Notes: generated from the letters alone by a model not told the origin. A DNA stretch of 64,000 nt from Alphaproteobacteria bacterium (GCA_965237415.1 CBDEFM010000002.1:2656001-2720000); one strand, 5' to 3'. Counted from the first letter of the stretch, positions 25,971 through 41,229 are shown. Translations and numbers: made by a program.

Positions 25971-27074
25971 TCAGACGAGCTCTTCGATCGGCGTATAGAC
26001 GTCCGCGATCCCGAAATATTTTGGGCCGAACACGTCGAGCGCCTCGGGCGTGCGCATCACCGGCGGCACGCTGACTCCCACCACGCGCACCCGCTGGCCG
26101 TACTTGAGCCCCTCGGTGGTGATGGGCTCGGCGTTTTCCTGATCGAGGATGCAGATCAGGTCCGGCACCATGCCGAGCGTGCGCTCGCCCTGCTGGGCGA
26201 CCAGGAACTCGTTTTGGAAGCGCACTTCCAGTTGCTCCCCCGTGCTCCCGCCGATGCCCTCGAAGATCACCCGCCCGATGGCCCAGCCCCGCGTGGTCTC
26301 GCGCAACAGGTCCACCACCTTGCCTTCGAAGAGCACCTTGCAGAAGCGCTTGTCGCGCGAGGTCTCGAAATAGCGCGCAAGCCCGGCGAAGGGGTCGCTC
26401 TGCGTCTCCCGCGCCTCGCGGATCGAGCGGCCGATCTCCATGGCGAGCGTGGTCGTGTAGAGCACGCCGGTCTCCTTCGCCTCCTTGCCCGACATCGAGT
26501 AGAGCGCGATCTCCGACTTGGTGCCCATGCAGGTGCACACCGCCCGCGCGAACCATTCGGATTCGAGGTTGCTGCGGGCGCGGACGATGACCTCGTTGTC
26601 GTGCTCGTCGCGGAGCACGATGGGTGAAGCCGGCACGCCGTAGACGCCGAAGGTGCACATCTGCAGCTCGGGGAAGGCGCGCCCCATGCCGTCGCCGTCC
26701 ACAACGGGCAAGCCGGTCAGGGCGCCGATCACCATGGGGAGCGTGCCGTTGATGCCGCCGGCCTCTGCGGCAATCAGCGCGTCCGCCTTGCGGCCCTTCT
26801 CGCGCTCGATCGAGCGCAGGCATTTCACCATGGAGAGCGCGCTCGGGATCTTCTCGACCATCACGGTCGGCGCGCCCATGTTGGCGACCGAGACGACGAA
26901 GTCGTCGTCGTCGAGGTCCATCGGGTCCATGATCGTGATGTCGGCGCCTTCCTCCAGCTTCTGCCTGAGGATCAGCCCGCCGACGTAGGGATCGCCACCG
27001 CCGCCGGTGCCGAGAAAGGCGGTGCCGCGCAGGAAGTCCGGCAGCAGGTCGAGGTGCATCTTCATCGTTGGCAT
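25971..27074 (-). CDS. DUF917-family protein
   Basis: GTAFLGTGGGGDP, MGAPT, EAGGIN, DGDGMGRAFPELQM, FQNE, VPDLI; ATG at 27074 after AAGGA. Confidence 0.88.
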   Translation of the reverse strand: MPTMKMHLDLLPDFLRGTAFLGTGGGGDPYVGGLILRQKLEEGADITIMDPMDLDDDDFVVSVANMGAPTVMVEKIPSALSMVKCLRSIEREKGRKADALIAAEAGGINGTLPMVIGALTGLPVVDGDGMGRAFPELQMCTFGVYGVPASPIVLRDEHDNEVIVRARSNLESEWFARAVCTCMGTKSEIALYSMSGKEAKETGVLYTTTLAMEIGRSIREARETQSDPFAGLARYFETSRDKRFCKVLFEGKVVDLLRETTRGWAIGRVIFEGIGGSTGEQLEVRFQNEFLVAQQGERTLGMVPDLICILDQENAEPITTEGLKYGQRVRVVGVSVPPVMRTPEALDVFGPKYFGIADVYTPIEELV

Positions 27075-27111
27075 TTCCTTGCTTTCGCTCCTGCTTGCTC
27101 GCTGCTCAGCC

Positions 27112-28650
27112 TTAGGCGAGATCGCCCACCGCCTTGACCCGCACCCGGCAGGCGGCGCCCGGCAGGTAGGCGAGGGGGATCTCCTCGACCTCGATGATCT
27201 CGATGCTGGCGGGCTCGGCGCCGGCATCGACCGCCTTGGCCTGCGCCTCGTCCTTGGCCTGGGCGATGGCGTTCTCCCGCCCCTCCTGCTCATAGGAGAA
27301 GACGCGGTCGACCTCGCCGCCAACCTGGGCGATGGCGGCGCCGATGGCGTTGGCGACCGCCGAATGCTCGGGAATGCTGAGGGTCGAAACGCCGGCGAGT
27401 TCGCGCTCCATCAGGATGCTGCCGCCGCCCACCAGGATCGCAGGCACCGGCTCTGCGCTCGTCTTCATACGATCGATCGCGTCCTCCACCATAACGTGGA
27501 TTTTCTCGAGCGCACGCCCCACGGCCGCGCCGTCCAGCCCGGCGACGGCCTCACGGTTGCCGATATCGGCGAGGCCCGCCGCGACGGCGATGTCGGTGGC
27601 GGTGAGCGTGCGGCCGCCGAAGACCAGCGCCTTCTCGGTGAGCTCGAAGCCGACGGAATCGGGGCCGACTGTGACCGGATCGTCGCCCCGCACCAGGCTG
27701 CCGCCGCCCAGCCCGATCGCCAGCACGTCGGGCATGCGGAAATTGGTCCGCACCCCGCCGACATCGACGGCAACCGCCGATTCCCGCGGGAAGCCCCGGG
27801 CCAGCACGCCGACATCGGTGGTGGTGCCGCCGATATCGACCACTACGGCGTTCTCCTGGTCGGAGAGGAAGGCCGCGCCCCGCATGCTGTTGGTGGGGCC
27901 GGAGGCGAAGGTCAGCACCGGATAGCGCTCGACGTAAGCCGCGCTCATCAGAGTGCCGTCGTTCTGGCTAATGAAGAAGGGGGCCTCGATTGAAAGCTCC
28001 TTCAACGCCTCGCTAAAGGAGCCCACCACCTTGGCGGAGAGCGAGACCAGGGCTGCGTTCATCACCGCCGCGTTCTCGCGCTCGATCAGCCCCACCCGGC
28101 CAATCTCGTTGGAGAGCGTGATCTGGGCATCCGGGTGTTCGGCCCGGATGATCTCGGCGGCCCGGTCCTCCTGAGCGCTGTTGAGGGGGGCGAAGACCGA
28201 GGAAATTGCGATCGATTCCAGTCCCTTGGCGGCAATGTCCCGGGCGATGCCGGCGATCTCGGCTTCGTCGAGGGGCGAGATCTCGCGCCCGTCCACCTCG
28301 TAGCCGCCCTTCGCCATGTAGACGTGGCGCCCGATGACATCTACCAGGTCGCGTGGCCAGTCGATCAGGGGGTTGAGGCTCTCGGTCGCCGGCAGCGCGA
28401 GACGAACGATGGCCACCGGCACCAGGCGCCGGCGCTCGACGATCGCGTTGGTGAACTGGGTGGTGCCGATCATTACCCCGGCGATGGCTCCGGGTGCGAT
28501 CGCCGATTGGGCCATCACGCCCTCGATCGCAGCCACCACGCCTGCGCCCACATCGGCGGTGGTCGGTGCCTTGATGGAAGCGACGACCGTCGCGCCGTCC
28601 ATCAGCACCGCATCGGTGTTGGTTCCGCCGACATCGACACCGATTCTCAT
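27112..28650 (-). CDS. Hydantoinase/oxoprolinase A-family protein
   Basis: IGVDVGGTNTDA, GTTQFTNA, ERENA, SGPTNS, DIGGTTTD, GLGGGS, ANAIGAA. Confidence 0.92.
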   Translation of the reverse strand: MRIGVDVGGTNTDAVLMDGATVVASIKAPTTADVGAGVVAAIEGVMAQSAIAPGAIAGVMIGTTQFTNAIVERRRLVPVAIVRLALPATESLNPLIDWPRDLVDVIGRHVYMAKGGYEVDGREISPLDEAEIAGIARDIAAKGLESIAISSVFAPLNSAQEDRAAEIIRAEHPDAQITLSNEIGRVGLIERENAAVMNAALVSLSAKVVGSFSEALKELSIEAPFFISQNDGTLMSAAYVERYPVLTFASGPTNSMRGAAFLSDQENAVVVDIGGTTTDVGVLARGFPRESAVAVDVGGVRTNFRMPDVLAIGLGGGSLVRGDDPVTVGPDSVGFELTEKALVFGGRTLTATDIAVAAGLADIGNREAVAGLDGAAVGRALEKIHVMVEDAIDRMKTSAEPVPAILVGGGSILMERELAGVSTLSIPEHSAVANAIGAAIAQVGGEVDRVFSYEQEGRENAIAQAKDEAQAKAVDAGAEPASIEIIEVEEIPLAYLPGAACRVRVKAVGDLA

Positions 28651-28685
28651 GCCCACGCCCTCCGAATCGTGCGGGCGCATCCTAG

Positions 28686-28710: not shown

Positions 28711-28851
28711 TCTGCACGGCACTTTCCGGCCGGCATGATCCACGTCATACCGGAGGCTGCGATTGCTCGCCTAAACTGCACAATCCCGAACTGGCACGGT
28801 CCTCGGGCCTAGGTGCCAGGCAACGGGCGCTGCGGAGAAGGAGGCTTGACC

Positions 28852-29673
28852 ATGGCGTACAAGGAAATCGTCGTGCACGTGGGTCCCGACGAGCGGTCGG
28901 CGGTGCGGCTCGATGCCGCAGTCGAGCTGGCCGAACGCCACGAAGGCAAGGTGACCGGCGTCTACGTGCTGTCTCGTCTCATCGTCCCCGGTTTCGCCAG
29001 CTTCGAGCTCTCCACGGAGGTCTACAAGCGGCTGGATACCGAACAGCGTGCGCTTGCCGAAGAAGCCGAGCGGCAGTTCGCAGAGCGGATGGCGAAGTCG
29101 ACGGCGCCTTCCGAATGGCGGCTCACGACGGGCGACCCCGTCGATGCGCTCACGACGAGCGCGCACTACGCCGACATCGCCGTCGTCGGCCAGACCGACC
29201 CCGACGATGCCAACAGCCTCTCCGGGCTGGCGGACAGCGTGGTGCTGGGCGCGGGTGGCCCCGTGCTGGTCTGGCCCTACGCCGGCTCGTTCAGCGCCAA
29301 CGCGGAGACGGTTGTGCTCGCCTGGAACAGCACCCGCGAGGCGAAGCGTGCGCTCTCCGACGCGCTGCCCATCATGCAGCAGGCGAGCAGGGTTATCGTC
29401 CTCGGCATCGACACCGGCGACGGCAAGCACATAGCGGGTGCCGACGTCAGCGCATACCTGGCACGGCACGGGGTCAGCGCAGAGGCCCGGCACACGGTCA
29501 GCTCGTCGGACCTCGGCGCCAGCGACGCCCTCCTCTCGGAGATCAGCGATCTCGGGGCCGGCCTCCTCGTCATGGGCGGCTACGGCCATCACCGCATGCG
29601 GGAGGTTCTGCTGGGCGGCGTGACCCGCGACATCCTGCGCCAGATGACCGTGCCGGTCGTGATGTCGCATTAG
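28852..29673 (+). CDS. Universal stress protein (tandem UspA domains)
   Basis: YKEIVVHV, AWNSTREA, LVMGGYGH...LGGVTR...PVVMSH; GGAGG RBS. Confidence 0.92.
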   Translation: MAYKEIVVHVGPDERSAVRLDAAVELAERHEGKVTGVYVLSRLIVPGFASFELSTEVYKRLDTEQRALAEEAERQFAERMAKSTAPSEWRLTTGDPVDALTTSAHYADIAVVGQTDPDDANSLSGLADSVVLGAGGPVLVWPYAGSFSANAETVVLAWNSTREAKRALSDALPIMQQASRVIVLGIDTGDGKHIAGADVSAYLARHGVSAEARHTVSSSDLGASDALLSEISDLGAGLLVMGGYGHHRMREVLLGGVTRDILRQMTVPVVMSH

Positions 29674-29697: not shown

Positions 29698-30600
29698 CTA
29701 GTAGTCGCGAAGCTCGGAGGCTTCGGTTGCGGCCTTCGCGCCGCCCCGCATCCGCCCGCTGGTCCAGACGCCGAGGATCGTCGCGAGATAGGGCAGCGAG
29801 AGCAGCACGTCATGCGGAATGCTCGCGCCGAAGAGAAGCTGCAGCCTGATCCCCGCGACGCCCACCAGGCTGAAGAACATCGCGGCGAAGGCGGCGCCGA
29901 TGGGGTGGGACGCGCCGAAGATGACGGCGGCGAAGCTCATGAAGCCCCGGCCCGCCGTCATGTTCTGCGCGAAGATGTGGAGGCCGCCTGCCGCAAGCTC
30001 GCCGCCGCCGATGGCGCAGAGAACACCGCCTGCCGCGAGCGCGATGAGGCGCGCGCGGGCCGGATTGGTGCCCACGCTGCGCGCTGCTAACGGATGCTCG
30101 CCTGCGGCGGCGAGCCGCAGGCCGAAGCGCGTGCGCCGCAGCAGCACCCACATGCCCCAGACGACGAAGGGCATCATCAGCACGAAGATGGAGAGTCCGC
30201 CATAGGTGCCAAAGGCATCGCCGAGCCGGGGCACGCCGAAGGGCGCGGTCACCGCGGCGAGGCTGCCGAAGAGGGCCTGCACGGCGAGCGCCGTGCCACC
30301 GATCCCAAGTCCCGTGAGGCCGAGTCCGGCGATGATCGGATTGGCGCCCAGCTTCTCGATCACGAACCAGAGCAGGACCGAGGCGGCGACGCAGAGCACG
30401 CAAGCGATCGCGATGGCAGCCGGGAACGAGCCGGTGAGCACGATGCCGAGGATCGTCGCGCAGGCGCCGATGATCATTACGCCTTCGAGGCCGAGGTGCC
30501 AGACGCCCGCGCGCTGCGCGATGACGCCTGCCATGGTGACGTAGACCAGCGGGGTGCCGGAGCGCAGGATCGCCACCATGAGCTCGTGAAACTCGGTCAT
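29698..30600 (-). CDS. ABC permease (nucleoside/BMP-type, second subunit)
   Basis: TPL, GLEG, RTRFGLRLAAAGEHP, GRGF, LPYLATI. Confidence 0.88.
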   Translation of the reverse strand: MTEFHELMVAILRSGTPLVYVTMAGVIAQRAGVWHLGLEGVMIIGACATILGIVLTGSFPAAIAIACVLCVAASVLLWFVIEKLGANPIIAGLGLTGLGIGGTALAVQALFGSLAAVTAPFGVPRLGDAFGTYGGLSIFVLMMPFVVWGMWVLLRRTRFGLRLAAAGEHPLAARSVGTNPARARLIALAAGGVLCAIGGGELAAGGLHIFAQNMTAGRGFMSFAAVIFGASHPIGAAFAAMFFSLVGVAGIRLQLLFGASIPHDVLLSLPYLATILGVWTSGRMRGGAKAATEASELRDY

Positions 30601-31634
30601 GTGGGCAGCCTGGCTGCCCGCAGGAGGCGGTCCAACAATCCTGACTTCGCGGTGATGAACAGCGCGACGGAGGCGTTGAAGATGTCGATGGCGGCGGCCG
30701 GAAGGCCGGCCAGGATCGGCAGATAGAGCGCGGCGTACGCAAGGCCGCCAAAGAAAATGCTGACGACCGCCGTCGCGAGCACCGAGAGGTTGGCGACCAG
30801 CGCGATCAGCACAGCGGTAAAGCCATGGCCCGGCAGAAATCCGCTGGCGATGCGCCCGGTCGGGCCGAGCAACTCGATGGTGCCGGCAAGCCCGGCGAGC
30901 GCCCCTGAGATCAGGAAGCTCGAAAGACCCAGCGTCCAGAGCCGCGCGCCCTGAAACCGCACCATGGTCGGATTGCGCCCGGCGAGGCTCGCGAGCATGC
31001 CGAAGGGCGTGCGGTTGACCAGCACCCACATGGTGAGCGCGACGACGGCGGCGATACCGATGATGGCGGGCGAGATGCCCTGGGAATCGCTGATGCGGTA
31101 GAGCGCCGGCAGCATTGGGCTCGCTGCCTGCTGGCCGGTGCCGGACGGGTCCTTGAGCGGACCAGAGGTGACGTAGACCAGCACAAGGGCTGCGATGAAG
31201 TTGCCCATGAGCGTCGTGATGACCTCGTCGGTGCCCGAGCGGAGCCTGAGATAGCCCGGCCAGAGCGCCCAGAGCGCGCCGCCGGCCATGCCGGCGAGGA
31301 AGGACGCCGGTAGCACCACGGCTGCCGACGCACCGCCGAGCAGATCCGTGACGAAGGCGGCCGAGATGGCGCCGATATAGAACTGGCCCTGCGCGCCGAT
31401 GTTGAAGAAACCGCAGCGGAAGGAGATCGCGACGCCCGTTGCGGTGATGAAGAGCGGCAAGGCCCAGCGCAGGCTCTGCGCCCAGCCACCCGCGCGCAGG
31501 AAGGCGCCTTCGACGATGGCCTCGAACATTAGCAGGGCCGAGTAGCCCGCAAGCTCGAAGATGACGCCGCAGAGTGCGAGCGCGAGCACGATGAAGGCGA
31601 GTGTGCGGATCACCGCGCCCGCGCGGATGTTCAT
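30597..31634 (-). CDS. ABC permease (nucleoside/BMP-type, first subunit)
   Basis: FNIGAQGQ, EVITTLM.NF, SGALAGLAG, GF.AVLIAL; alternative GTG start 31643. Confidence 0.88.
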   Translation of the reverse strand: MNIRAGAVIRTLAFIVLALALCGVIFELAGYSALLMFEAIVEGAFLRAGGWAQSLRWALPLFITATGVAISFRCGFFNIGAQGQFYIGAISAAFVTDLLGGASAAVVLPASFLAGMAGGALWALWPGYLRLRSGTDEVITTLMGNFIAALVLVYVTSGPLKDPSGTGQQAASPMLPALYRISDSQGISPAIIGIAAVVALTMWVLVNRTPFGMLASLAGRNPTMVRFQGARLWTLGLSSFLISGALAGLAGTIELLGPTGRIASGFLPGHGFTAVLIALVANLSVLATAVVSIFFGGLAYAALYLPILAGLPAAAIDIFNASVALFITAKSGLLDRLLRAARLPT

Positions 31635-31639
31635 GCCGC

Positions 31640-33220
31640 TCACGCGGACGCCCCGGTCATGGCGCGTCCCACCGCCGCGATGTCATAGGGCGGTACGAAC
31701 TCGGCGACGATACGGCCCGAGAGCATGACCACAAGGCGGTGGCCGATGTCGAACAGCTCGTCGAGATCGGACGAGATCAGCAGCACGCCGCAGCCCTGCC
31801 CGGCCGCCTCGCGGAGCGCCGACCAGACGAAGTCCGTGGCGCCGATATCGAGCCCGCGCGCCGGCTGGGCTGCGATGATAAGGCGCGCATCCCTGTCGAT
31901 CTCGCGCGCGAGGATGATTTTTTGGGCGTTGCCGCCGGAGAGCGCGCCGGCGTTCTGGCTCGCCGACGCGTAACGCACCCCCCAGGCCTTGAGGGACTCG
32001 TCGCATCGGCGCTGCAAGGCGGCCGGATCGACGAGGCTGAACAGCGGCCTCTGAAGCAGGTCGCGGACAGACCAGTTCTCCCAAAGCGCGCTGGTGAGGC
32101 TCAGGCCCTCGCTGTTGCGCTCGAACGGGATGACCCGCAAGCCCAGCGCGCGGCGTTGGGCGGGGCTCGCGCGTCGCGCGTCTGTGCCGCTCAGGTGGAT
32201 GTCGCCGCCCGTGACATCGGCGAGGCCGGCGACCGCCTTCACCAGAGTCCGCTGGCCGTTGCCCTGGACCCCGGCGACGCCCACGATCTCCCCCGGCGCG
32301 ACACTGAGGGAGACGCGGTCCAGAGCCGGTTCCTCCGGCTCCTTGGCCGTGCTGACCGATGCGAGCGCGAGGACCGCCCCGCGCGAGGCGGGGGGTGGCT
32401 CCTCGTGCGTGTCGCGCGCCCCCCCACCGCTAAACGGCGCCGCCCCGACGAGGGCGACGGTATCGTCGGCGTCGGCTGAGGCGGCCGTGGCCCCGCCGAT
32501 AATCGTCTCGGCGATACTCGTCTCGTCGGCCCCGGCCCGGGGGAGGGGGCCTGCGACCAGCCGGCCGCCGCGCAGGACCGAGATCGTGTCGGCGACCGCC
32601 AGCACCTCGCGGATCTTGTGCAGGATCAGGATCACCGTGACCCCGTGCCGCCTGAGCCCGCGAATGCGCTCGAACAGCGCCTCGATGCCGGAAGGCGGGA
32701 GCACCGCCGTTGGCTCGTCCAGGATCAGCACGCGTGCGTCGGTGACCAGCGCACGGGCGATCTCCACGCCCTGCTGCGCCTCGACCGGCAGGTCGCGGAT
32801 GCGTCGGCGCGGATCGACGTCGAGGTCGAGGGCGGCGAGACGTTCGCGGCAGCGCCTCAGGAGCTGGCGCCGGCCGTAGAGGCCGATACCGCCGCTGGCG
32901 CCGAACTCCAGCGCCTCCGCCACGGTGAAGGAGGGGGGCAGCGCGAAGCTCTGGTGAACCAGCTCGACCCCGGCCGCCCGCGCGCCGGCGACACGGCCGA
33001 GGCGCAGCGGGCGCCCGTCGATGTGGAGCGAGCCGGCGTCGGGCCGGATAAGACCGGCCGCGACGCGGGCGAAGGTCGTCTTTCCGGCGCCGTTTTGGCC
33101 CACCACGGCGTGAATGGCGCCGCGCTCGAAGGCGATCGAGAGCTCGGCGAGTGCCGTGACCTCGCCGTATGTGACGCGAATCCCGCGGCAGTGGAGGGCC
33201 GGCGGGTCCGCAGCAATCAT
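31640..33220 (-). CDS. ABC ATP-binding protein, two-domain carbohydrate/nucleoside (CUT2) type
   Basis: GQNGAGKT, LILDEPTAVL, GVQGNGQ, LSGGNAQK, GLDIGA; start approximate. Confidence 0.9.
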   Translation of the reverse strand: MIAADPPALHCRGIRVTYGEVTALAELSIAFERGAIHAVVGQNGAGKTTFARVAAGLIRPDAGSLHIDGRPLRLGRVAGARAAGVELVHQSFALPPSFTVAEALEFGASGGIGLYGRRQLLRRCRERLAALDLDVDPRRRIRDLPVEAQQGVEIARALVTDARVLILDEPTAVLPPSGIEALFERIRGLRRHGVTVILILHKIREVLAVADTISVLRGGRLVAGPLPRAGADETSIAETIIGGATAASADADDTVALVGAAPFSGGGARDTHEEPPPASRGAVLALASVSTAKEPEEPALDRVSLSVAPGEIVGVAGVQGNGQRTLVKAVAGLADVTGGDIHLSGTDARRASPAQRRALGLRVIPFERNSEGLSLTSALWENWSVRDLLQRPLFSLVDPAALQRRCDESLKAWGVRYASASQNAGALSGGNAQKIILAREIDRDARLIIAAQPARGLDIGATDFVWSALREAAGQGCGVLLISSDLDELFDIGHRLVVMLSGRIVAEFVPPYDIAAVGRAMTGASA

Positions 33221-33254
33221 ATGTTCCGAGAGGGTTTCCCCCCTATGGCCTGGA

Positions 33255-34328
33255 TCAGAGTTCCGTGTTGAACGGCACCGCGACCGATCCGTCGAGGATA
33301 CCCGCGCGTGCCGCCTCGACATGCGGCCACGCGTCTGCGGACCTTGCGACGATAGCCGCCGGCCCCTGCTCCTGATAGAGCGGCGACAAGAGGAAGTCGA
33401 TCACCCCGCTGCCGAGGCCGGTCGGCACGTGCCGGCCGCCTTGCCAATCCGCGCCGAGCGCGGCGCTCGCCTCGTTGTGGAGCGACTGGCCGAAGTGCAG
33501 GCTCACGACCCCGATCACCGAGGCGGGACCCAGCGGGTATTGAGCCGGGTCGAGCGCGCTCACCATGGCGCCCTCGCGCTCGTTGGCCGCCTGGATGATG
33601 CCGCCGTCGGTCGCGGCGGAATCGGTCTGGATGTAGTCGATCCCGTCCAGGAACATCTGGCTCGCGATCTCGTACCCCTTCGCCGGGTCCTGGAAAGAGC
33701 CTGCGAAGGCGGCGGTGACGGTCGCCTCCGGGTTGACCGCGTGAACGCCGGCCTGGAGCGCATTGAAGTCGGCGTTGAGCGGCGGAATGCTGATGCCGCC
33801 GATATAGCCGATCTGCTTCGACTGCGAGACGTGGGCGGCGAAGATGCCGGACAGGTAGCAGCCGAGATAGTAGTCGTAGGAGACCGTCACCAGGTTGGGG
33901 ATCGGCGGCTCGACCGCATCGCCGAAGAGCTGGATCCACTTGGTCTCGGGATAAAGCGGGGCCACCGCCTTGAAGGCCTCGGAGATGACCGGGAAGGTGC
34001 CCAGCACGATGGAAGCGCCGGCGTCGCCGAGGATTCTGAGCACGGTCTCGTAGGTCGCCGGGTCCTGGGCGTAGATGGCGCGGGTCTCGAATCCCTCCGC
34101 TTCGGAGAGCTGCTGCAGGCGCCCCATCATGGAATCGATGGGGCCGCTGTCGCCCGCCGCCTGGGTGTGCACGAGCGCGACCAGGCCGGTCCCTGCGCGC
34201 GCGGAGAGCGAAAACGCACCGCCCGCGCCGACAACTGCCGAGACTCCTGCAGTGACCGCCAGAAATCGGCGGCGGCTGACGAGGGCACGCATCGCACTCC
34301 GATCCTTCAACGTCGGCTTGTTCGACAT
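33255..34328 (-). CDS. BMP-family (nucleoside-type) substrate-binding protein, Tat signal
   Basis: SRRRFL twin-arginine motif; IGYIGG, GSFQDPAKG typical of BMP/PnrA-like proteins. Confidence 0.85.
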   Translation of the reverse strand: MSNKPTLKDRSAMRALVSRRRFLAVTAGVSAVVGAGGAFSLSARAGTGLVALVHTQAAGDSGPIDSMMGRLQQLSEAEGFETRAIYAQDPATYETVLRILGDAGASIVLGTFPVISEAFKAVAPLYPETKWIQLFGDAVEPPIPNLVTVSYDYYLGCYLSGIFAAHVSQSKQIGYIGGISIPPLNADFNALQAGVHAVNPEATVTAAFAGSFQDPAKGYEIASQMFLDGIDYIQTDSAATDGGIIQAANEREGAMVSALDPAQYPLGPASVIGVVSLHFGQSLHNEASAALGADWQGGRHVPTGLGSGVIDFLLSPLYQEQGPAAIVARSADAWPHVEAARAGILDGSVAVPFNTEL

Positions 34329-34419
34329 GGCCTTTCTCCTCCTCTCCCAAGGGCGCCCACTGCGCCCTTCAGTTCATCGTGGGCAAACCCCACGAGGCGA
34401 AACCGCCGGGCTACACGAC

Positions 34420-34746
34420 TCATGCGCCGATCGGCGGCGAGCACGGCGCCGGGTTCATCACCATCACGTCTTGTTCCTGGATCGCGTCGAGCGCCCACAC
34501 CGACTGGATGAAGGCCTGCCACGCGGGGTCCACGCTCATCGCGGCCCGCCGCCGCTCGCGGTCGGCCAGGCTCTCGTAGGCCCAGATCAGGACGATCCGG
34601 TGCAGCCGGCCGATCTCAGACACGTAGAGGCCCACGAAGTGACCGAGATGGCGCTTCTGGATCGGCAGGCCTTCCGTCTCGTAACGCTTCAGCCAGCCGC
34701 CCACCGTGCCGGGACGGAACGTGTAGGTCCGATGCTCGACGATCAT
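34420..34746 (-). CDS. NIPSNAP-family protein
   Basis: MIVEHRTYTFRPG...IWAYESLADRERRRAAM..DPAW...PCSP; ATGA overlap with the GMC gene. Confidence 0.88.
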   Translation of the reverse strand: MIVEHRTYTFRPGTVGGWLKRYETEGLPIQKRHLGHFVGLYVSEIGRLHRIVLIWAYESLADRERRRAAMSVDPAWQAFIQSVWALDAIQEQDVMVMNPAPCSPPIGA

Positions 34747-36404
34747 TCTCGGTATTCCTCGGATAGTGCGTCTGCGGGCGGCGCGGCCCCGCGAATGAAC
34801 TCGGCCGCCTTCTCGCCGATCATGATGGCGGGCGCGTTGGTGTTGCCGCTGACAATGACGGGCATGACGGACGCGTCGGCGACCCGGAGCCCTTCGATGC
34901 CGTGGACGGCGAGCCGGGCGTCCACCACCGCCATCGGGTCCCAGCCCATGCGGCAGGTGCCGACGGGATGAAAGGTCGTCATCGCATTGGCGCGGAGCCA
35001 CGCGGTGAGCTCTTTGTCGCTCTGCATATCGCCGCCGGGCGTGAGCTCGCGGCCGCGAAAGGCGGCGAAGGCCGGCTGCCCGATGACGTCGCGGACCATG
35101 CGGATGCCCGTGATCGTTGTCCGGCAATCGGCTTCGTCCTGCAGATAGTTGGGCTGGATCAGCGGCGGCGCGGCGGGGTCGGCGGAGTTAAGACCGATCC
35201 AGCCTCGGCTCTCGGGGTTGAGCGGGCCCACGCGCAGGCTGAATCCGTGGGTGTCCTCGACCGACGCCTTCTCGAAGGGTGTCGGCAGGTGCAGGTTCGC
35301 CGTCTTCTCCAGCGCCGGCATGAAGTGCACCTGGATATCCGGCGCCAACAGGTCCGCCCGGCTCTTGAGGAAGGCGCCGGCTTCGTAGGGGAAGGTCGTC
35401 GCCACCCCGCGGCCGAAGAGCATCCCCTCGGCCACCGAGCGGATCATTCTGTCGGCCCGGAGGTCGCGGTAGAGGGTGACCGGCTTGGTGCAGGCGTAGG
35501 CGAGGACGCAGTCGACGTGATCCTGGAGGTTCCGGCCGACGCCGGGGAGCTCGTGCACCACGGGGATGCCGTGCCGCTTCAACTCTTCGCCGGGCCCGAT
35601 GCCCGAGAGCATGAGGAGCTGGGGCGAGTTGACTGTGCCGGCGCAGAGGATGACCTCGCGCTCCGCGTGGATCGTGCGCGTTGCGCTTCCCTCCGCCACC
35701 TCGACTCCGGTCGCACGGCCGCCGTCCAAGACCACGCGGCGCACCAGGCAGCCGGTGGCGATCGCCAAATTGCGCCGATGCCGGATGGGGCGCAGAAAGG
35801 CGGCGGAGGTGGAGCAACGTTTGCCCCGCCTGATGGTGAAGTCGTAGCGCCCAAAACCCTGCTGCTCCGCACCGTTGAAGTCGTCGTTGACGGGCCAGCC
35901 GGCCTGACGGCCCGCCTCGACAAAAACGTCGAACAGCGGGTTCGCACCGCGTGCGCGGCAGACCGTGAGCTCGCCGCCTGTCCCGTGATAGGCGCCGTCG
36001 CGCTCCACATGCCCTTCGGAGCGGCAAAAGGCCGGCAGCAGGTCATCGTAGGACCAGCCGCCAAGGCCCATTTGCGCCCATCGGTCATAGTCGTGGCGGT
36101 TGCCGCGCACGTAGATCATGCCGTTGATGGTCGAGGAGCCGCCCAGCACCTTGCCGCGCGGCCAGTAGAGCGCGCGGCCGCCCAGGCTCGGCACCGGCTC
36201 GGTGTGGTAGCGCCAGTTGTAGATGCCGGAGTGGAACAGCCGACCCATCAGCATGGGCAGTCGGAACAGAGGGTTGCGGTCCTTGCCGCCGGCCTCGATG
36301 AGGAGGACCGAACGCTCAGGGTCGGCCGAGAGCCTGTTGGCGAGCACGCATCCGGCGGAGCCCGCGCCGACGATGACGGAGTCGAAGAAGCGCCCGCGCG
36401 GCAT
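34743..36404 (-). CDS. GMC-family FAD oxidoreductase (choline dehydrogenase-like)
   Basis: GAGSAG, RGKVLGGSSTINGM.Y.RG, SPQLLMLSGIG, NLQDH, HPVGTCRMG, GNTNAP. Confidence 0.93.
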   Translation of the reverse strand: MPRGRFFDSVIVGAGSAGCVLANRLSADPERSVLLIEAGGKDRNPLFRLPMLMGRLFHSGIYNWRYHTEPVPSLGGRALYWPRGKVLGGSSTINGMIYVRGNRHDYDRWAQMGLGGWSYDDLLPAFCRSEGHVERDGAYHGTGGELTVCRARGANPLFDVFVEAGRQAGWPVNDDFNGAEQQGFGRYDFTIRRGKRCSTSAAFLRPIRHRRNLAIATGCLVRRVVLDGGRATGVEVAEGSATRTIHAEREVILCAGTVNSPQLLMLSGIGPGEELKRHGIPVVHELPGVGRNLQDHVDCVLAYACTKPVTLYRDLRADRMIRSVAEGMLFGRGVATTFPYEAGAFLKSRADLLAPDIQVHFMPALEKTANLHLPTPFEKASVEDTHGFSLRVGPLNPESRGWIGLNSADPAAPPLIQPNYLQDEADCRTTITGIRMVRDVIGQPAFAAFRGRELTPGGDMQSDKELTAWLRANAMTTFHPVGTCRMGWDPMAVVDARLAVHGIEGLRVADASVMPVIVSGNTNAPAIMIGEKAAEFIRGAAPPADALSEEYRE

Positions 36405-36407
36405 CGG

Positions 36408-37259
36408 CTACCAGTCCACCGGCGCCGCGCCCATGGCACGCAGCCGCCGGTTGCAGAGCGCGAACGGGTTCTCTTGCGCGAGGACCTCTCGGGCTTGGGC
36501 CGGGTGGGGGCGAAGGATGACGCGCTCGTCGCCTGCGTCGGACCCGCACAGCCCCGCCGTCCGGAGTGTCTCCACTGCCGCATCGCCGAAGCCCAGGATA
36601 ACGACGGGTGTGCCCCTCTCCGCGAGATGGGTGAGCACCCGGATCATCAAGGGGCGCCAGAGCGGCAGGTGGCCCTGCACCTGGTGCGGATCGCCCTCGC
36701 GCAGGAAGCGCGTGAGCGTGAGCGAGGCATTCAGGAGCAGCACGCCGGAGGCGACCCAGCGATCGGCCAGCGCCTCGGGCGCCTCCAGATCGACCGCGCC
36801 CTGTTCGATGGCCGCGAGAGTCGCGGGCCACTGCGCGACGCCTTGGGCGTGTCGCGCCTCGCCGGGCCGCGCGGCGAGGATCATCTGGATGAACGCGCGG
36901 ACGCTCGGGGAGAACATCTTGTCGAGCTCGCGCCAGCGCGCGACGTTGCCGGCCTCGAAGGCCCGGCCGGTGGCGAAGGCGGGGCAGGGATAAGGGTCCT
37001 GCCCCAGGATCACGCAGCGCACATCCCCGGGCGCGATCCCATCGAAGGCGCGGAGCATGTGCGCGCCTGCCGGCGCGCCGGGGAAGACCATTCCGCGCCG
37101 AGCCGGGAAGATCGGCTCCCAGGGCTCCAATTCGAGCGTGGGGTCGACATCGTCGAATGCCAGCGAAACAGTGCGGACGACAGCGCGCCAGGGAGGATCG
37201 ATATCCTCGCGCCAGCCGCGCAGCGTGTCCTGGAGCGCCGCTTGCAGTGGCATGACCAT
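36408..37259 (-). CDS. Uracil-DNA glycosylase family-1-like protein (divergent DNA-binding loops)
   Basis: VILGQDPYP, ATGRAF, GVLLLNASLT, HPA; start at ATG 37259 or 37253. Confidence 0.8.
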   Translation of the reverse strand: MVMPLQAALQDTLRGWREDIDPPWRAVVRTVSLAFDDVDPTLELEPWEPIFPARRGMVFPGAPAGAHMLRAFDGIAPGDVRCVILGQDPYPCPAFATGRAFEAGNVARWRELDKMFSPSVRAFIQMILAARPGEARHAQGVAQWPATLAAIEQGAVDLEAPEALADRWVASGVLLLNASLTLTRFLREGDPHQVQGHLPLWRPLMIRVLTHLAERGTPVVILGFGDAAVETLRTAGLCGSDAGDERVILRPHPAQAREVLAQENPFALCNRRLRAMGAAPVDW

Positions 37260-37288
37260 GGCGTCCGCTTGCTCCCGCCCGCCCCAAA

Positions 37289-37344
37289 AACCTGACATGC
37301 GTGTCAGGTTCAACGATTCGGCAACCGGACACGCGCGTCAAGTT
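37289..37344. promoter_or_regulatory. Two related 22-bp inverted repeats (candidate TetR operators)
   Basis: AACCTGACAtgcgTGTCAGGTT (37289-37310) and AACCGGACAcgcgCGTCAAGTT (37323-37344) in the divergent gap. Confidence 0.7.
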
Positions 37345-37425
37345 TTTTCTTATGTCCCGTCCGGGCCGCGCGGCTAGACTGCATGCGTCGCCGGCATACG
37401 CAGGGAGTACTCTGCGACACGAGGG

Positions 37426-38094
37426 ATGAGCATGACGAAGACGATGCGGGCAGAAGCGGGAAACGACGCCCCGGAGCCGAGAATCCGGGCCAGGAACAAG
37501 GAGCGGATCCTGCGCGCCGCCGTCGATCTCTTCGCCGACAAGAGCTTCCACGGCACGCACGTCAAGGAGATCGCGCAGGCGAGCGGCCTGCCGAAGACCA
37601 ACGTCTACTACTACTTCCCCACCAAGGAGAGCATCTACACGGCCGTGATCGAGCGGCTGATCGAGGGCTGGGACCGCGCCTTCGAGCATATCGTGCCCGA
37701 GCGCGAGCCGCGCGAGGCCATTGCCGCCTACATCCGTGCGAAGCTGGAATATTCGCGCCGCCACGCCGCAGAATCCCGCTTCTTCGCCAACGAGATCCTG
37801 CGCGGCGCTCAGTTTCTGGAGCGGCGCCAGCGCCAGCATATCCGCGACGTGACCACCCAACGCGCCCATGTGGTGGAGGAATGGATCCGGCGGGGGCAGA
37901 TGGCACCGGTGGATGCGCGCCACTTCTTCATCATGCTGTGGTCGGCGACCCAGTTCTATGCGGATTTCGGGGCGCTGGCCGCCGATGTGCTGGAGAAGCG
38001 GAGTCTCACGAAGAAGGATTTCGACGCCGCGGCGGAGACGATGACACGGGTTATCCTGGACGGGTGCTGCGCTCCGCCGCGGTCTTTGCGTTGA
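37426..38094 (+). CDS. TetR-family regulator, RutR-like
   Basis: IRARNKERILRAA...GLPKTNVYYYF; YIRAKLEYSR, SRFFANEI, IMLWSATQFYADF resemble the RutR C-terminal domain. Confidence 0.88.
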   Translation: MSMTKTMRAEAGNDAPEPRIRARNKERILRAAVDLFADKSFHGTHVKEIAQASGLPKTNVYYYFPTKESIYTAVIERLIEGWDRAFEHIVPEREPREAIAAYIRAKLEYSRRHAAESRFFANEILRGAQFLERRQRQHIRDVTTQRAHVVEEWIRRGQMAPVDARHFFIMLWSATQFYADFGALAADVLEKRSLTKKDFDAAAETMTRVILDGCCAPPRSLR

Positions 38095-38299: not shown

Positions 38300-38878
38300 A
38301 TGCCGCTCTACGAGAGCACGTTTATCGCGCGTCCCGATATCTCGTCCCAACAGGTGGACGGCCTTGCCGAGCAGTTTCGCGAGATTGTGACGGAGGCCGG
38401 TGGCGAGGTCGCCAAGACCGAATATTGGGGGCTGCGCAGCCTTGCGTATCGCATCAAGAAGAACCGCAAGGGCCACTACTATTTCATGAACATCGATGCG
38501 CCGGCGGAAGCGATCAACGCCATGGAGCACACGATGCGCATCAACGAGGACGTCATTCGCTACCTCACGGTGCGGGTCGAGGAGCACGACCCCAACCCGG
38601 CGCCGCTCACGCAGTCGCGCGGACGCGGACGCGATGGGCGCGGCGGTCGCGGTGGACGGTGGGAGAGCCGCGGCGGCGAAGGACGGCGCCGGGAGGACGG
38701 CGGCGAGCGCGGCGAACGCAGGGAACGTGATGGGCCCCGTGAGCGCCAAGACGCCGCGCCGGCGGACGCCGCACCGGCAGATGCGGGCGCTGAGCCCAGC
38801 GCGGCCGCCCCAGTCGGCGATGCGGTAGGCGGCAGCGAGGCAGGCAGCGGCGGCGCCGAGGAGAAGAGCGATGGCTGA
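38300..38878 (+). CDS. rpsF: 30S ribosomal protein S6 with long C-terminal tail
   Basis: [33 protein letters not shown]. Confidence 0.97.
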
Positions 38879-39257
38879 AGGCGAACGGACCGAGAGCGGC
38901 CCGCCACCCGCCGGTGCAAGTCGGCCGGAGCCGAGCGGCGGCGGGCGCAGCCAGCATCCCTTTGGCGGCCCGCGCCACGGCGGCGGGCATGGCGGCGGTC
39001 GCGGCGGCGGGGGCGTGCCCGTGGTCTCGTTCCCCAGGCGCCCGTTCTTCCGCCGCAAGAAGTCCTGCCCCTTCAGTGGGGCCAATGCGCCGAAGATCGA
39101 CTATCGCGACGTGAAGCTGCTTCAGCGCTTCCTCTCCGAGCGGGGCAAGATCGTGCCGAGCCGCATCACCGCAGTGTCGGCCAAGAAGCAGCGGGAGCTC
39201 GCACGCGCGATCAAGCGTGCGCGTCATCTGGCGCTGCTGCCCTACGTCATCAAATAG
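38871..39257 (+). CDS. rpsR: 30S ribosomal protein S18 with Gly-rich N-terminal extension
   Basis: [36 protein letters not shown]. Confidence 0.97.
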
Positions 39258-39326
39258 CCAGGTAGCCGGTCTTCGCCCGGTACCGGCGCTTCGGGCCGGG
39301 CGATCCGCCAAGCGGAGAACAAGGGC

Positions 39327-39989
39327 ATGGAAATCATCTTGCTCGAGAGGATCGAGAAGCTCGGCGGGATGGGCGATATCGTCGGGGTGAAGGACGGCTA
39401 TGCCCGCAACTTCTTGCTTCCCCGCAAGAAGGCTCTCCGCGCCACGCCCGAGAACATGGAGCGCTTCGAGCGCGAGCGCGAAGCGCTGGAGAATCTGAAC
39501 AGCGACCGGCGCGATGCCGCGAGCTCGGCCGCGACACGGTTGGAGGGGGAGAGCATCGTCCTCATCCGCCAGGCAAGCGACACGCTGCAACTCTACGGCT
39601 CCGTCAACGCGCGCGATGTCGCCGAGGCGATGGCCGAGCGGGGCGCCGAGGTCAGGCGCCAGCAGGTGCGTTTGGATCGCCCCATCAAGTCGCTCGGCAT
39701 GCATGACGTGCGCATCGCGCTCCACCCGGAGGTGATGGTGACGGTCAAGGTCAATGTCGCCCGCTCGCCCGAGGAAGCGAAGATCCAGGCTCGAGGCGGC
39801 ACGATCCTCGACGAGGCTGAGGATTTGGCGGAGGAGGCTGCAGAGGGCGATACGCCAAAGTGGGAGCACCCGGCGAACGAAGACGGTGATGCGCCGGATG
39901 CCGCGGCGGCCACAGATGAGGCCACCGAAACCGCCGATGCGGGCGTCGGCACCGACGGCGGCGCAGACGAAGACCTGCCCAGCGCCTAG
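39327..39989 (+). CDS. rplI: 50S ribosomal protein L9
   Basis: VKDGYARNFLLP, LYGSV, LHPEV, VNVARS; acidic tail. Confidence 0.97.
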   Translation: MEIILLERIEKLGGMGDIVGVKDGYARNFLLPRKKALRATPENMERFEREREALENLNSDRRDAASSAATRLEGESIVLIRQASDTLQLYGSVNARDVAEAMAERGAEVRRQQVRLDRPIKSLGMHDVRIALHPEVMVTVKVNVARSPEEAKIQARGGTILDEAEDLAEEAAEGDTPKWEHPANEDGDAPDAAAATDEATETADAGVGTDGGADEDLPSA

Positions 39990-40014
39990 GCTGGAATCCA
40001 CGAGGCCCTGAACC

Positions 40015-41229
40015 ATGCTGGTCGCGCCCCTGCTCAAGATATTGATGAGGCGGGGCACGCTCGGCGTGGTCGATGCACGGGGCAAACTCCACACCTTCAA
40101 GGGCGCGCCGGGGCCCAGCGTCACCATCCGGCTGCACGACCGCTCGCTTCACTGGAAGCTCCTGTGGAACTCGCGCCTCGTCGTCGGCGAAGCCTACATG
40201 GACGGCACGCTGACGCTGGAGGACGACGCGACCATCCGCGATTTCCTGCACCTGGTCGGCGCGAACATCCACCTGCTCGACGAGAACGCGGTGGTCAAGG
40301 CGCGCAACTGGCTCGCGCAATGGGTCCGCCCGCTGCAGCAGCACAACCCCATCGGCCGTGCTCGGCAGAACGTGGCCCATCACTACGATCTATCGGACGA
40401 CCTCTACGACCTCTTCCTCGATCCCGATCGGCAGTATTCCTGCGCCTACTTCGACACGCCCAACCACTCGCTGGAGCAGGCCCAGCACGCCAAGAAGCGC
40501 CATCTCGCGTCGAAGCTGCTGCTCGACCGGCCCGGCCTCAGCGTGCTCGACATCGGCTCCGGCTGGGGCGGCCTCGGCATCTACCTGCACGAGCAAGCCG
40601 GCGTGGCCGTGACGGGTCTCACGCTGTCGCGCGAGCAGCAGGCCTATGCGTCGGCGCGCGCGCAAAAGCTCGGCATTCAGGAGCACGTGGCCTTCCATCT
40701 GCGCGACTATCGCGAGGACACCGGCACTTACGATCGCGTCGTCTCGGTCGGCATGTTCGAGCATGTGGGCGTCAAACACTACGTCGAGTTCTTTCGCACG
40801 CTGGAGCGGCTGCTAAAGGAGGATGGCGTCGCCCTGCTCCACACCATCGCCCGCTGGGACGGGCCGAGCGTCACCAATCCGTGGCTGCGCAAGTACATAT
40901 TCCCCGGCGGCTATTGCCCGTCGCTCTCCGAGATGTTCGCCGCGCTGGAGCAGACCGGGCTCAAGTCCCTCGATGTGGAGATGCTGCGCCTGCACTACGC
41001 CAATACGCTCAAGCATTGGTCGCGCAACTTCCAGGCGAGCCGCGAGCGGGTGAAGGAATTCTACGACGAGCGCTTCTGCCGGATGTGGGAGTTCTACCTC
41101 GCGGGCGCCGAGGCGGCCTTCCGCCACCAGGATCACATGGTGGCCCAGATCCAGCTCGCCCGGAGCCAGGACGCGGCGCCGCTGACCCGCGACTACATGG
41201 TCGATTGGGAGCGCGCCCACGCCGCCTGA
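40015..41229 (+). CDS. cfa: Cyclopropane-fatty-acyl-phospholipid synthase family methyltransferase
   Basis: HHYDLS, QYSCAYF, LDIGSGWGG, SVGMFEHVG, YIFPGG, RMWEFYL. Confidence 0.9.
   Translation: MLVAPLLKILMRRGTLGVVDARGKLHTFKGAPGPSVTIRLHDRSLHWKLLWNSRLVVGEAYMDGTLTLEDDATIRDFLHLVGANIHLLDENAVVKARNWLAQWVRPLQQHNPIGRARQNVAHHYDLSDDLYDLFLDPDRQYSCAYFDTPNHSLEQAQHAKKRHLASKLLLDRPGLSVLDIGSGWGGLGIYLHEQAGVAVTGLTLSREQQAYASARAQKLGIQEHVAFHLRDYREDTGTYDRVVSVGMFEHVGVKHYVEFFRTLERLLKEDGVALLHTIARWDGPSVTNPWLRKYIFPGGYCPSLSEMFAALEQTGLKSLDVEMLRLHYANTLKHWSRNFQASRERVKEFYDERFCRMWEFYLAGAEAAFRHQDHMVAQIQLARSQDAAPLTRDYMVDWERAHAA

Follow-up and report, generated by a model that had tools for sequence, protein, structure and literature searches.

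Enzymes belonging to the superfamily of uracil-DNA glycosylase (UDG) are known to act on DNA, and the closest described relatives of the gene considered here, those for family-1 Ung, stand alone as repair genes. In a 64,000-nucleotide stretch of DNA from an alphaproteobacterium (GCA_965237415.1, CBDEFM010000002.1:2656001-2720000; referred to as the window), the gene for a UNG-like protein, which we call UDGL, instead heads a transport and oxidation operon under a RutR-type repressor (positions 29698-38094). UDGL resembles family-1 Ung, including the protein of Protein Data Bank (PDB) entry 5x3g, in its fold and in the GQDPY, F, GVLLLN and HP motifs, and it shares with 5x3g the extra helices between the Phe and Asn motifs. 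UDGL exceeds Escherichia coli Ung by about 55 residues and differs from the family in scoring below every curated threshold, in its short or variable Leu-intercalation loop and in the replacement of the Gly-Ser-loop serine.

The repressors most similar to that of the cluster are E. coli RutR and Pseudomonas PydR. The uracil-binding residues of RutR are L74, W77, L78, K101, W167, Q171 and Q179. Uracil is stacked between W77 and W167, K101 contacts O4 and Q171 contacts O2/N3, Q179 of the partner subunit contacts N1/O2, and L78, which clashes with the methyl group of thymine, sets the specificity (PMC4325133, partial text). The E. coli RUT box is a 16-bp palindrome with the consensus TTGACCANNTGG- (PMC2952853, partial text). 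Like RutR and PydR, the cluster repressor is composed of TetR_N and TetR_C_3 domains and has the Trp pair, the Lys/Gln uracil readers and operators with the arm spacing of the RUT box. In contrast to these, it falls below the RutR cut-offs, carries Asp in place of L78 and an aliphatic residue or Thr in place of Q179, and governs its operon from two operators about 34 bp apart with no adjoining rut genes.

Two further systems invite comparison. With BMP/PnrA-type (CUT2-like) nucleoside importers the cluster shares a binding protein of the Bmp type, a pair of BPD_transp_2 permeases and a fused double ATPase, and in other genomes RihA-like hydrolase and deaminase genes are appended to it. Its binding protein is however remote (at most 72 bits) from solved BMP proteins, and its fixed enzymes are UNG-like, GMC and NIPSNAP proteins rather than phosphorylases, Cdd or Deo enzymes. 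Fungal thymidine salvage proceeds by thymine-7-hydroxylase and then isoorotate decarboxylase, with 5-hydroxymethyl-, 5-formyl- and 5-carboxyuracil as intermediates (PMC4787775, partial text). If the substrate favoured below is right, stepwise oxidation of a hydroxymethyl group at uracil C5 would be common to both; the cluster would use a GMC flavoenzyme instead of a 2-oxoglutarate dioxygenase and has no amidohydrolase-type decarboxylase in its core. The phage aGPT-Pplase enzymes were considered as a parallel and rejected, since they have a helix-hairpin-helix fold and not a UDG fold (PMC8989533, partial text).

Nucleoside and pyrimidine catabolic operons are known; the enzyme set found here is unexpected. 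The explanation we favour, with slightly more than even confidence, is a repressor-controlled operon for import and degradation or salvage of a uracil-ring N-glycoside, in which UDGL would serve as a glycosidase of small molecules. A pyrimidine (deoxy)nucleoside or a close analogue is the likeliest compound. Taken together, the data suggest that a fold of DNA repair was co-opted for the degradation of an imported compound containing uracil.

Organization and conservation of the cluster

Pfam and NCBIfam scans, followed by refinement of the start codons by inspection, identified seven closely packed minus-strand genes and one divergent plus-strand regulator in a region of about 68% G+C (sizes in amino acids, aa):

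37426-38094, plus strand: RutR-like TetR repressor, 222 aa; Pfam TetR_N and TetR_C_3 (YcdC/RutR-type), 5e-41
37293-37306 (core): operator 1, perfect palindrome AACCTGACA-TGCG-TGTCAGGTT, core TGAC-N6-GTCA
37327-37340 (core): operator 2, imperfect copy, GGAC-N6-GTCA, 34 bp from operator 1
36408-37259, minus strand: UNG-like protein UDGL, 283 aa; Pfam UDG E = 0.005, NCBIfam ung models 1e-17 to 1e-18
34743-36404, minus strand: GMC flavin oxidoreductase, choline-dehydrogenase-like subgroup, 553 aa; GMC_oxred_N 1e-59, GMC_oxred_C 4e-38
34420-34746, minus strand: NIPSNAP-family protein, 108 aa; Pfam NIPSNAP (PF07978) 6e-28, 97.4 bits against a cut-off of 22.3
33255-34328, minus strand: BMP/PnrA-type periplasmic binding protein, 357 aa; Pfam Bmp 3e-33, twin-arginine leader SRRRFLAV
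31640-33220, minus strand: ABC ATPase with two nucleotide-binding domains, 526 aa; ABC_tran matched in two stretches
30597-31643, minus strand: ABC permease 1, 348 aa; BPD_transp_2 7e-37
29698-30600, minus strand: ABC permease 2, 300 aa; BPD_transp_2 5.5e-26

This gene content, the common orientation and the divergent RutR-like TetR had been described in an earlier note on this DNA, and the scans and refined starts confirmed both content and coordinates. The UDGL and GMC genes are separated by a 3-bp gap, while three junctions, GMC/NIPSNAP, ATPase/permease 1 and permease 1/permease 2, are 4-nt overlaps. Larger gaps follow NIPSNAP (91 bp, before the BMP gene) and the BMP gene (34 bp, before the ATPase gene), and UDGL and TetR diverge across 166 bp. 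No signal peptide was seen in UDGL, GMC or NIPSNAP.

The 80 closest loci from other genomes, whose UDGL relatives show 53-93% identity, served as comparison set. They come from Mesorhizobium, Rhizobium, Ensifer/Sinorhizobium, Hoeflea, Devosia, Shinella, Paracoccaceae and uncultured lineages of the Alphaproteobacteria and, outside this class, from Variovorax. Neighbours were counted by tblastn with the eight window proteins, the denominators being the loci with enough flanking sequence. The GMC gene lies directly downstream of the UDGL gene in 77 of 79 loci, and TetR is divergent from it in 69 of 76. NIPSNAP and BMP genes were each found in 70/75 loci, the ATPase in 68/70, permease 1 in 67/69 and permease 2 in 66/68; the full set of eight genes is present in 65 of the 80. 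Among the exceptions, locus L033 has UDGL alone, L010 lacks GMC, and L008, L011 and L014 hold a UDGL-GMC-NIPSNAP trio without the BMP system. The window's flanking genes are common only to its nearest relative, L001, and the conserved module therefore consists of exactly the eight genes. Such an arrangement is far beyond chance. The neighbour counts, together with the intergenic operators described below, bear out the earlier view of one conserved, co-regulated unit.

Cultured carriers include Ensifer canadensis, Mesorhizobium, Variovorax boronicumulans and many strains of S. meliloti; the megaplasmid pSymA bears the cluster in many strains of this last species (45 plasmid records were found, strain 1021 not among them). 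In public annotation the first three gene products are labelled 'uracil-DNA glycosylase', 'choline dehydrogenase' and 'NIPSNAP family protein'.

The UNG-like protein and its wider family

UDGL did not reach the curated cut-offs of Pfam PF03167 (17.4 bits vs 24.3) or of the NCBIfam TIGR00628 and PRK05254 models, with scores of 62 vs 185.75 for TIGR00628 and 65.5 vs 143 for NF003588. Sequence and fold make it a relative of family-1 UNG, but no curated threshold admits it as a member, so that of the family-1 label given to it in the earlier note the relationship stands and the membership does not. In a phmmer search against the PDB the protein matched M. tuberculosis UNG (1.8e-12) and the 'unconventional family 1' UNG of Nitratifractor salsuginis (5x3g, 7e-12). 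An AlphaFold2 model built on a 55-sequence alignment reached a pLDDT of 95.8. With this model Foldseek returned 117 matches at E<=0.001, among them 5x3g (2.7e-11) and 4wpk (TMt 0.74), and the best matches listed were all family-1 UNGs (2.7e-11 to 1e-8, TMt up to 0.74). A search of the ESM Atlas with UDGL gave UDG-named clusters only.

The catalytic and uracil-pocket residues of E. coli Ung include D64, Y66, F77, N123 and H187. Alignment places D88, Y90, F101, N177 and H252 of UDGL at these positions. The protein thus retains the Asp that activates water and the Tyr in GQDPY, the Phe that stacks, the Asn in GVLLLN that reads uracil, and the His in the HP motif, and the equivalents of E. coli Q63, D64, Y66, F77, N123 and H187 are invariant in all 81 members of the operon clade. 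The picture is different for the Leu-intercalation loop (HPSPLS...R) and the Gly-Ser-loop serine, which grip the DNA backbone in family-1 Ung. At the Gly-Ser-loop position the 81 sequences have D (61), A (8), G (3), E (3), T (2) or N (2), never S. Behind the His, the Leu-intercalation loop of the window UDGL has three residues fewer than that of E. coli Ung; among 55 family members its length varies and no Leu is conserved. The extra helices between the Phe and Asn motifs correspond to model residues of about 109-170. Isoelectric points were set aside as a guide to DNA binding because their range in the family (4.8-11.5) is uninformative.

The window's genome has no family-1 Ung above the cut-off and three other UDG-superfamily genes above the Pfam cut-off. 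Among five other cluster-bearing genomes tested, a canonical Ung above the cut-off coexists with the cluster in three and is absent from two; UDGL is therefore not simply the Ung of the organism.

Among 1.84 billion representatives searched for the family, 228 matched at E<=1e-10, of which 80 reached E<=1e-30. Of 401 evenly sampled genomes of the phylum, two have a full-length member, the window's genome and one other; the other 38 matches (57-70 bits, partial model cover, frames of 221-345 aa) were taken as canonical UNGs. In a maximum-likelihood tree the operon set (82 rows), which was defined by similarity retrieval with gene context counted afterwards, forms one side of a branch with SH-aLRT 100. 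None of 51 loci of distant relatives (26-44% identity) has GMC, NIPSNAP, TetR or BMP genes nearby, and the association therefore defines one clade and not the whole family. Homologues without this neighbourhood, which the earlier note had named as grounds against its proposal, thus occur among distant paralogues only and not as the pattern of the orthologous clade, where 65 of 80 loci are complete.

In 10 of the 51 distant loci (Variovorax and other Burkholderiales) the UDGL relative overlaps a gene for a 551-aa deaminase-type amidohydrolase, and in four to five it is coupled to genes for a GDPD-like phosphodiesterase and a 949-aa amidohydrolase-domain protein. No recurrent DNA-repair genes were found among the conserved neighbours of the 51 loci. 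Judged from their neighbours, these distant subfamilies look like further uncharacterised small-molecule pathways built on the same fold.

Individual loci of this kind have additional features. At L143 (5091-8858) the distant relative is translationally coupled to the 551-aa amidohydrolase gene, with genes for a P460-like protein and an S41 peptidase upstream. At L133 (8001-14497) the translationally coupled partners are the GDPD-like phosphodiesterase and the 949-aa amidohydrolase-domain protein. L087, on Azospirillum plasmid p5, has the same partners, and a GMC oxidoreductase with a gluconate-dehydrogenase-subunit-3-like protein lies alongside.

Repressor, partner proteins and accessory genes

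The TetR scored below the RutR equivalog cut-offs (TIGR03613, 171.9 vs 368; NF011584, 147.2 vs 230), and its best PDB matches were E. coli RutR structures (6z1b/3loc, 1e-38), to which it aligns without gaps. Among the cluster TetRs the RutR contacts W77 and K101 are kept in 73/73, W167 in 71/71, Q171 in 69/71 and L74, as I or L, in 73/73. Two positions differ throughout: that of L78, which abuts uracil C5, is Asp in 73/73, and that of Q179 is L, V, I, M or T in 71/71. Since the ring contacts are kept and the contacts on the C5 and N1 sides are changed, we infer an effector unlike plain uracil. It would present the Watson-Crick edge of uracil and would differ beside C5, with a polar group facing the Asp, and beside N1. 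A 5-hydroxymethyl-uracil nucleoside would suit both changes of the pocket. The RutR-like character noticed earlier thus holds for recognition of the uracil ring, but not for the RutR cut-offs or for these two ligand positions. The pyrimidine theme of that note agrees well with the uracil-ring contacts, with the uracil pocket of UDGL and with the accessory RihA-like hydrolase and deaminases described below.

The core of the operators, TGAC-N6-GTCA, matches the RUT box in arms and spacing, and many copies read TTGAC...TGGTCA. Against a background of 0.107 sites per kb in the locus sequence as a whole, the region between TetR and UDGL carries the motif in 68 of 70 related loci; in 49 of the 70 the number of sites is exactly two, with a spacing of mostly 33-34 bp. 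A stricter motif, TGACR-N4-YGTCA, has 23 matches in the whole genome, including those of the window operon. Two of these sites precede a second trio of UDGL, GMC and NIPSNAP genes and one lies 14 bp before the binding-protein gene of a second importer. The only two TetR_C_3 proteins of the genome are those beside the two trios. One further operator-like site, at C2:319738, precedes an amidase gene by 20 bp, and another, at C2:3418130, is about 630 bp away from a gene of the NCS2 (xanthine/uracil permease) family; these may be further members of the regulon or chance matches.

The GMC protein passed the threshold of the PRK02106 subfamily (670 bits vs 605) and failed that of the betA equivalog TIGR01810 (583.9 vs 732.1), and neither betB nor betI adjoins its gene. 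By its sequence it is a GMC oxidoreductase of the choline-dehydrogenase-like subgroup and not BetA. Its best PDB matches were choline dehydrogenase (9lq0, 1.8e-140) and a chloramphenicol-inactivating oxidoreductase (8b7s); lower matches were the hydroxymethyl-heteroaromatic oxidases pyridoxine 4-oxidase, HMF oxidase and aryl-alcohol oxidase, and sugar oxidases came last. This ranking favours a primary alcohol as the class of substrate. The PDB relatives of the NIPSNAP protein are all uncharacterised structural-genomics proteins. For the binding protein, the closest solved relatives (72 bits or less) bind nucleosides, riboflavin or atrazine. The earlier statement that BMP systems import nucleosides was too general, as riboflavin and atrazine binders are among the nearest solved proteins.

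The second trio of the window's genome (C2:2130231-2141687; L093 7726-19188) encodes UDGL2, GMC2 and NIPSNAP2 with 72%, 85% and 79% identity to the respective window proteins. Its TetR, about 8 kb away, is 90% identical to the window TetR. Between them lie GMC pseudogene fragments (L093, ~12427-12949) and genes for a PotD-like SBP_bac_8 ABC importer, a CDA-fold deaminase and a VOC-family protein. The core trio thus occurs with three importer types: BMP, SBP_bac_8/PotD-like and, nearby in some genomes, NMT1-type. Accessory genes recur as well. Among the 67 loci holding permease 2, a RihA-like pyrimidine ribonucleoside hydrolase is present in 18 and a TRZ/ATZ deaminase-type amidohydrolase in 24 (23 by stricter clustering), and a VOC protein gene follows the BMP-type operon in at least five loci; pT173d of Ensifer canadensis has annotated genes for all three. 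TetR, UDGL, GMC and NIPSNAP form the invariant core. A constant core with varying importers and with aminohydrolase, nucleoside-hydrolase and VOC accessories indicates a metabolic enzyme set and points to cytosine/uracil chemistry.

Several other observations concern the surroundings of the trios and their relatives. Directly downstream of the second trio, on the minus strand (L093, 4378-6909), are a SMODS-domain (second-messenger nucleotidyltransferase) gene and a QueC-like gene, which may be a defence-type pair apparently unrelated to the operon. A third, solitary NIPSNAP copy at C2:3371075-3371392 (92.7% identity over 82 aa), with no adjoining intact GMC or UDGL gene, is probably the remnant of another duplication. 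The region C2:570396-578304 has genes for a binding protein homologous to the PotD-like one (31%), for a TRZ/ATZ amidohydrolase (48% to that of the Mesorhizobium operon) and for a CDA-fold deaminase (44%); it has no UDGL gene and may be a related cluster for uptake and deamination of a cytosine-type compound. In unrelated genomes a LysR regulator, an enoyl-CoA hydratase and a family-III CoA-transferase recur beside the trio (L008 2579-9849, L004 17658-20691 and the upstream flanks of L074, L075 and L078), and an NMT1/THI5-type ABC importer and a PF12831 FAD oxidoreductase likewise recur near it at those loci.

Proposed pathway, alternatives and flanking genes

In the pathway we propose, the compound would be imported by the BMP-type ABC system and, where a deaminase is present (in other genomes and at the second copy), its cytosine form would be turned into the uracil form. 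The GMC flavoenzyme would oxidise an alcohol group of the compound. UDGL, with its intact uracil pocket and Asp/His/Asn set, would then cleave the N-glycosidic bond of a small molecule and not of DNA, releasing the base. NIPSNAP might contribute an accessory step, e.g. an isomerisation, mutarotation or decarboxylation. The RutR-like TetR would occupy the two operators between the divergent promoters and be released by a uracil-ring effector, with recognition that probably departs, both at C5 and at N1, from that of plain uracil.

The most detailed form of this pathway that we favour, in which a 5-hydroxymethyl-pyrimidine nucleoside is the substrate and the GMC enzyme oxidises its 5-CH2OH group, is tentative and, at this level of detail, rather improbable. 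Spelled out in full it would mean that a clade of the family-1 UNG fold left DNA repair and works with GMC and NIPSNAP proteins in an undescribed 5-hydroxymethyl-pyrimidine (deoxy)nucleoside pathway, where the C5 side chain is oxidised and removed, uracil is released, and the Asp of a RutR paralogue reads the 5-hydroxymethyl group; we regard this complete scheme as doubtful and improbable. Candidate substrates are 5hmdU/5hmU and, after deamination, 5hmC forms, derived from phage, dinoflagellate or oxidised DNA. A 5-hydroxymethyl group had already been guessed in the earlier note, and the support it has gained is indirect, namely the Asp in 73/73 repressors at the C5-abutting position and the primary-alcohol-type GMC subgroup.

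A weak hint that close relatives express the cluster came from metatranscriptome contigs of two studies. These are 90-99% alike to the window and cover parts of the permease, ATPase, BMP, GMC, UDGL and TetR genes; among the pieces listed NIPSNAP is the exception. Runs with labels such as 'sponge metagenome' contained 44-46% of the sampled words, and these labels were not taken as evidence of habitat. Junctions were bridged between UDGL and GMC (36309-36455), NIPSNAP and BMP (34258-34473), and BMP and ATPase (33117-33333 and 33216-33510).

Several points weigh against a small-molecule glycosidase operon as the explanation. No part of the catalytic apparatus found in true uracil-DNA glycosylases is missing from UDGL, and the Pro-loop serine too is conserved in 81/81. 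Its closest solved relative by fold, 5x3g, is a DNA glycosylase by deposited title and citation, and because of this the loss of a canonical Leu loop is no proof of lost DNA activity. In canonical UNG, 5-substituted uracils are blocked by the GQDPY Tyr, which speaks against direct cleavage of a 5-substituted nucleoside. The C5 idea would then require that the side chain be oxidised and removed before glycosidic cleavage, or that the pocket be unlike that of UNG beyond what the alignment captures. The GMC subgroup assignment names no substrate, and BMP-family binding proteins are not limited to nucleosides. The RNA-library data are contigs only, which prove neither a single transcript nor its ends or level, and DNA may be present in RNA libraries. 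In the literature searched we found no enzymatic, ligand-binding or genetic data for any member, and a full-text search, with most subscription journals outside its scope, yielded no publication on the cluster or on any enzyme of UDG fold with free nucleosides as substrates.

Some of these points would be explained if UDGL were a genuine DNA glycosylase, co-expressed as a safeguard of a pyrimidine uptake and oxidation operon, which would remove the wrong bases put into DNA when pools of dUTP or analogues are raised. The family-1 fold, the invariance of all family-1 catalytic and uracil-pocket residues with the Pro-loop serine, the deposition of 5x3g as a UNG and the lack of a canonical family-1 Ung above the cut-off in the window's genome and two of five other carriers are in line with this idea. 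We nevertheless consider it, the main rival of the favoured explanation, rather unlikely. Canonical Ung is present in three of the five carriers, and the window's genome has three other UDG-superfamily genes; the Leu-intercalation loop is unconserved and the Gly-Ser-loop serine is replaced, mostly by Asp. Moreover, UDGL is first in the operon, 3 bp before GMC, which directly follows it across two proteobacterial classes, it was duplicated along with GMC and NIPSNAP, and its distant relatives pair with amidohydrolases and phosphodiesterases. A plainer catabolic role, with hydrolysis of 2'-deoxyuridine or uridine to uracil and sugar by UDGL, a mutarotase-like NIPSNAP protein and a GMC enzyme oxidising C1 of the (deoxy)ribose to a lactone, or the 5'- or 3'-hydroxyl of the nucleoside before cleavage, is clearly improbable in our view. 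An unsubstituted uracil would suit the intact pocket with its C5-blocking Tyr. IUNH-type nucleoside hydrolases require a 2'-OH and are only accessory here, so that a UDG-derived enzyme would fill a gap for deoxynucleosides. GMC enzymes in the PDB list include oxidases of sugar C1 and other sugar oxidases, and NIPSNAP and rhamnose mutarotase share, as we assume, a dimeric alpha/beta-barrel fold. However, the repressor is altered at exactly the C5- and N1-side positions in every member, a change that neither uracil nor plain uridine as signal would call for. The GMC protein is nearest to oxidisers of primary alcohols (choline dehydrogenase, chloramphenicol oxidoreductase) and considerably more distant from glucose and pyranose oxidases, and lactonase or deoxyribonate genes are not recurrent beside the cluster.

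Finally, the cluster might detoxify or consume a cytosine/uracil-type nucleoside antibiotic, or another xenobiotic N-glycoside from neighbouring organisms, by deamination, oxidation and deglycosylation. The recurrence of two unrelated deaminase types and of a VOC protein (bleomycin/fosfomycin-resistance fold) as accessories would fit, as would the antibiotic-inactivating 8b7s among the closest solved relatives of GMC, the patchy distribution (full-length members in 2/401 genomes sampled) and the location on megaplasmid pSymA in many S. meliloti strains. Against this, the conserved transporter is an ABC importer and not an exporter, nutrient catabolism is where control of the RutR type and a RihA-like hydrolase are typically seen, and there is no known resistance phenotype; we consider such a role very unlikely. 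If instead the favoured explanation, import and glycosidic cleavage of a uracil-ring compound, is true, the UDGL clade in its transport and oxidation operon would put the UDG fold to a new use outside repair and would give a first functional handle on bacterial NIPSNAP proteins. It would likewise mean a new route of pyrimidine catabolism or salvage in rhizobia, roseobacter-type marine bacteria and Variovorax, and the systematic annotations 'uracil-DNA glycosylase' and 'choline dehydrogenase' would have to be corrected. Since cultured carriers exist, the system is directly testable.

On its downstream side the operon is bounded by a convergent universal-stress-protein (Usp) gene (28813-29673, plus strand). 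A minus-strand open reading frame at 28771-29670 was rejected as an eighth operon gene, as the codon-position GC pattern favours the plus-strand Usp frame. Hydantoinase/oxoprolinase-A-like and S-Me-THD-like (DUF917) genes on the minus strand (25971-28680) were likewise rejected as members, being common to the nearest relative only. The boundary beyond TetR is formed by rpsF-rpsR-rplI, from 38300. The stretch 38300-41229 holds these ordinary genes followed by one for a cyclopropane-fatty-acyl-phospholipid-synthase-like methyltransferase.

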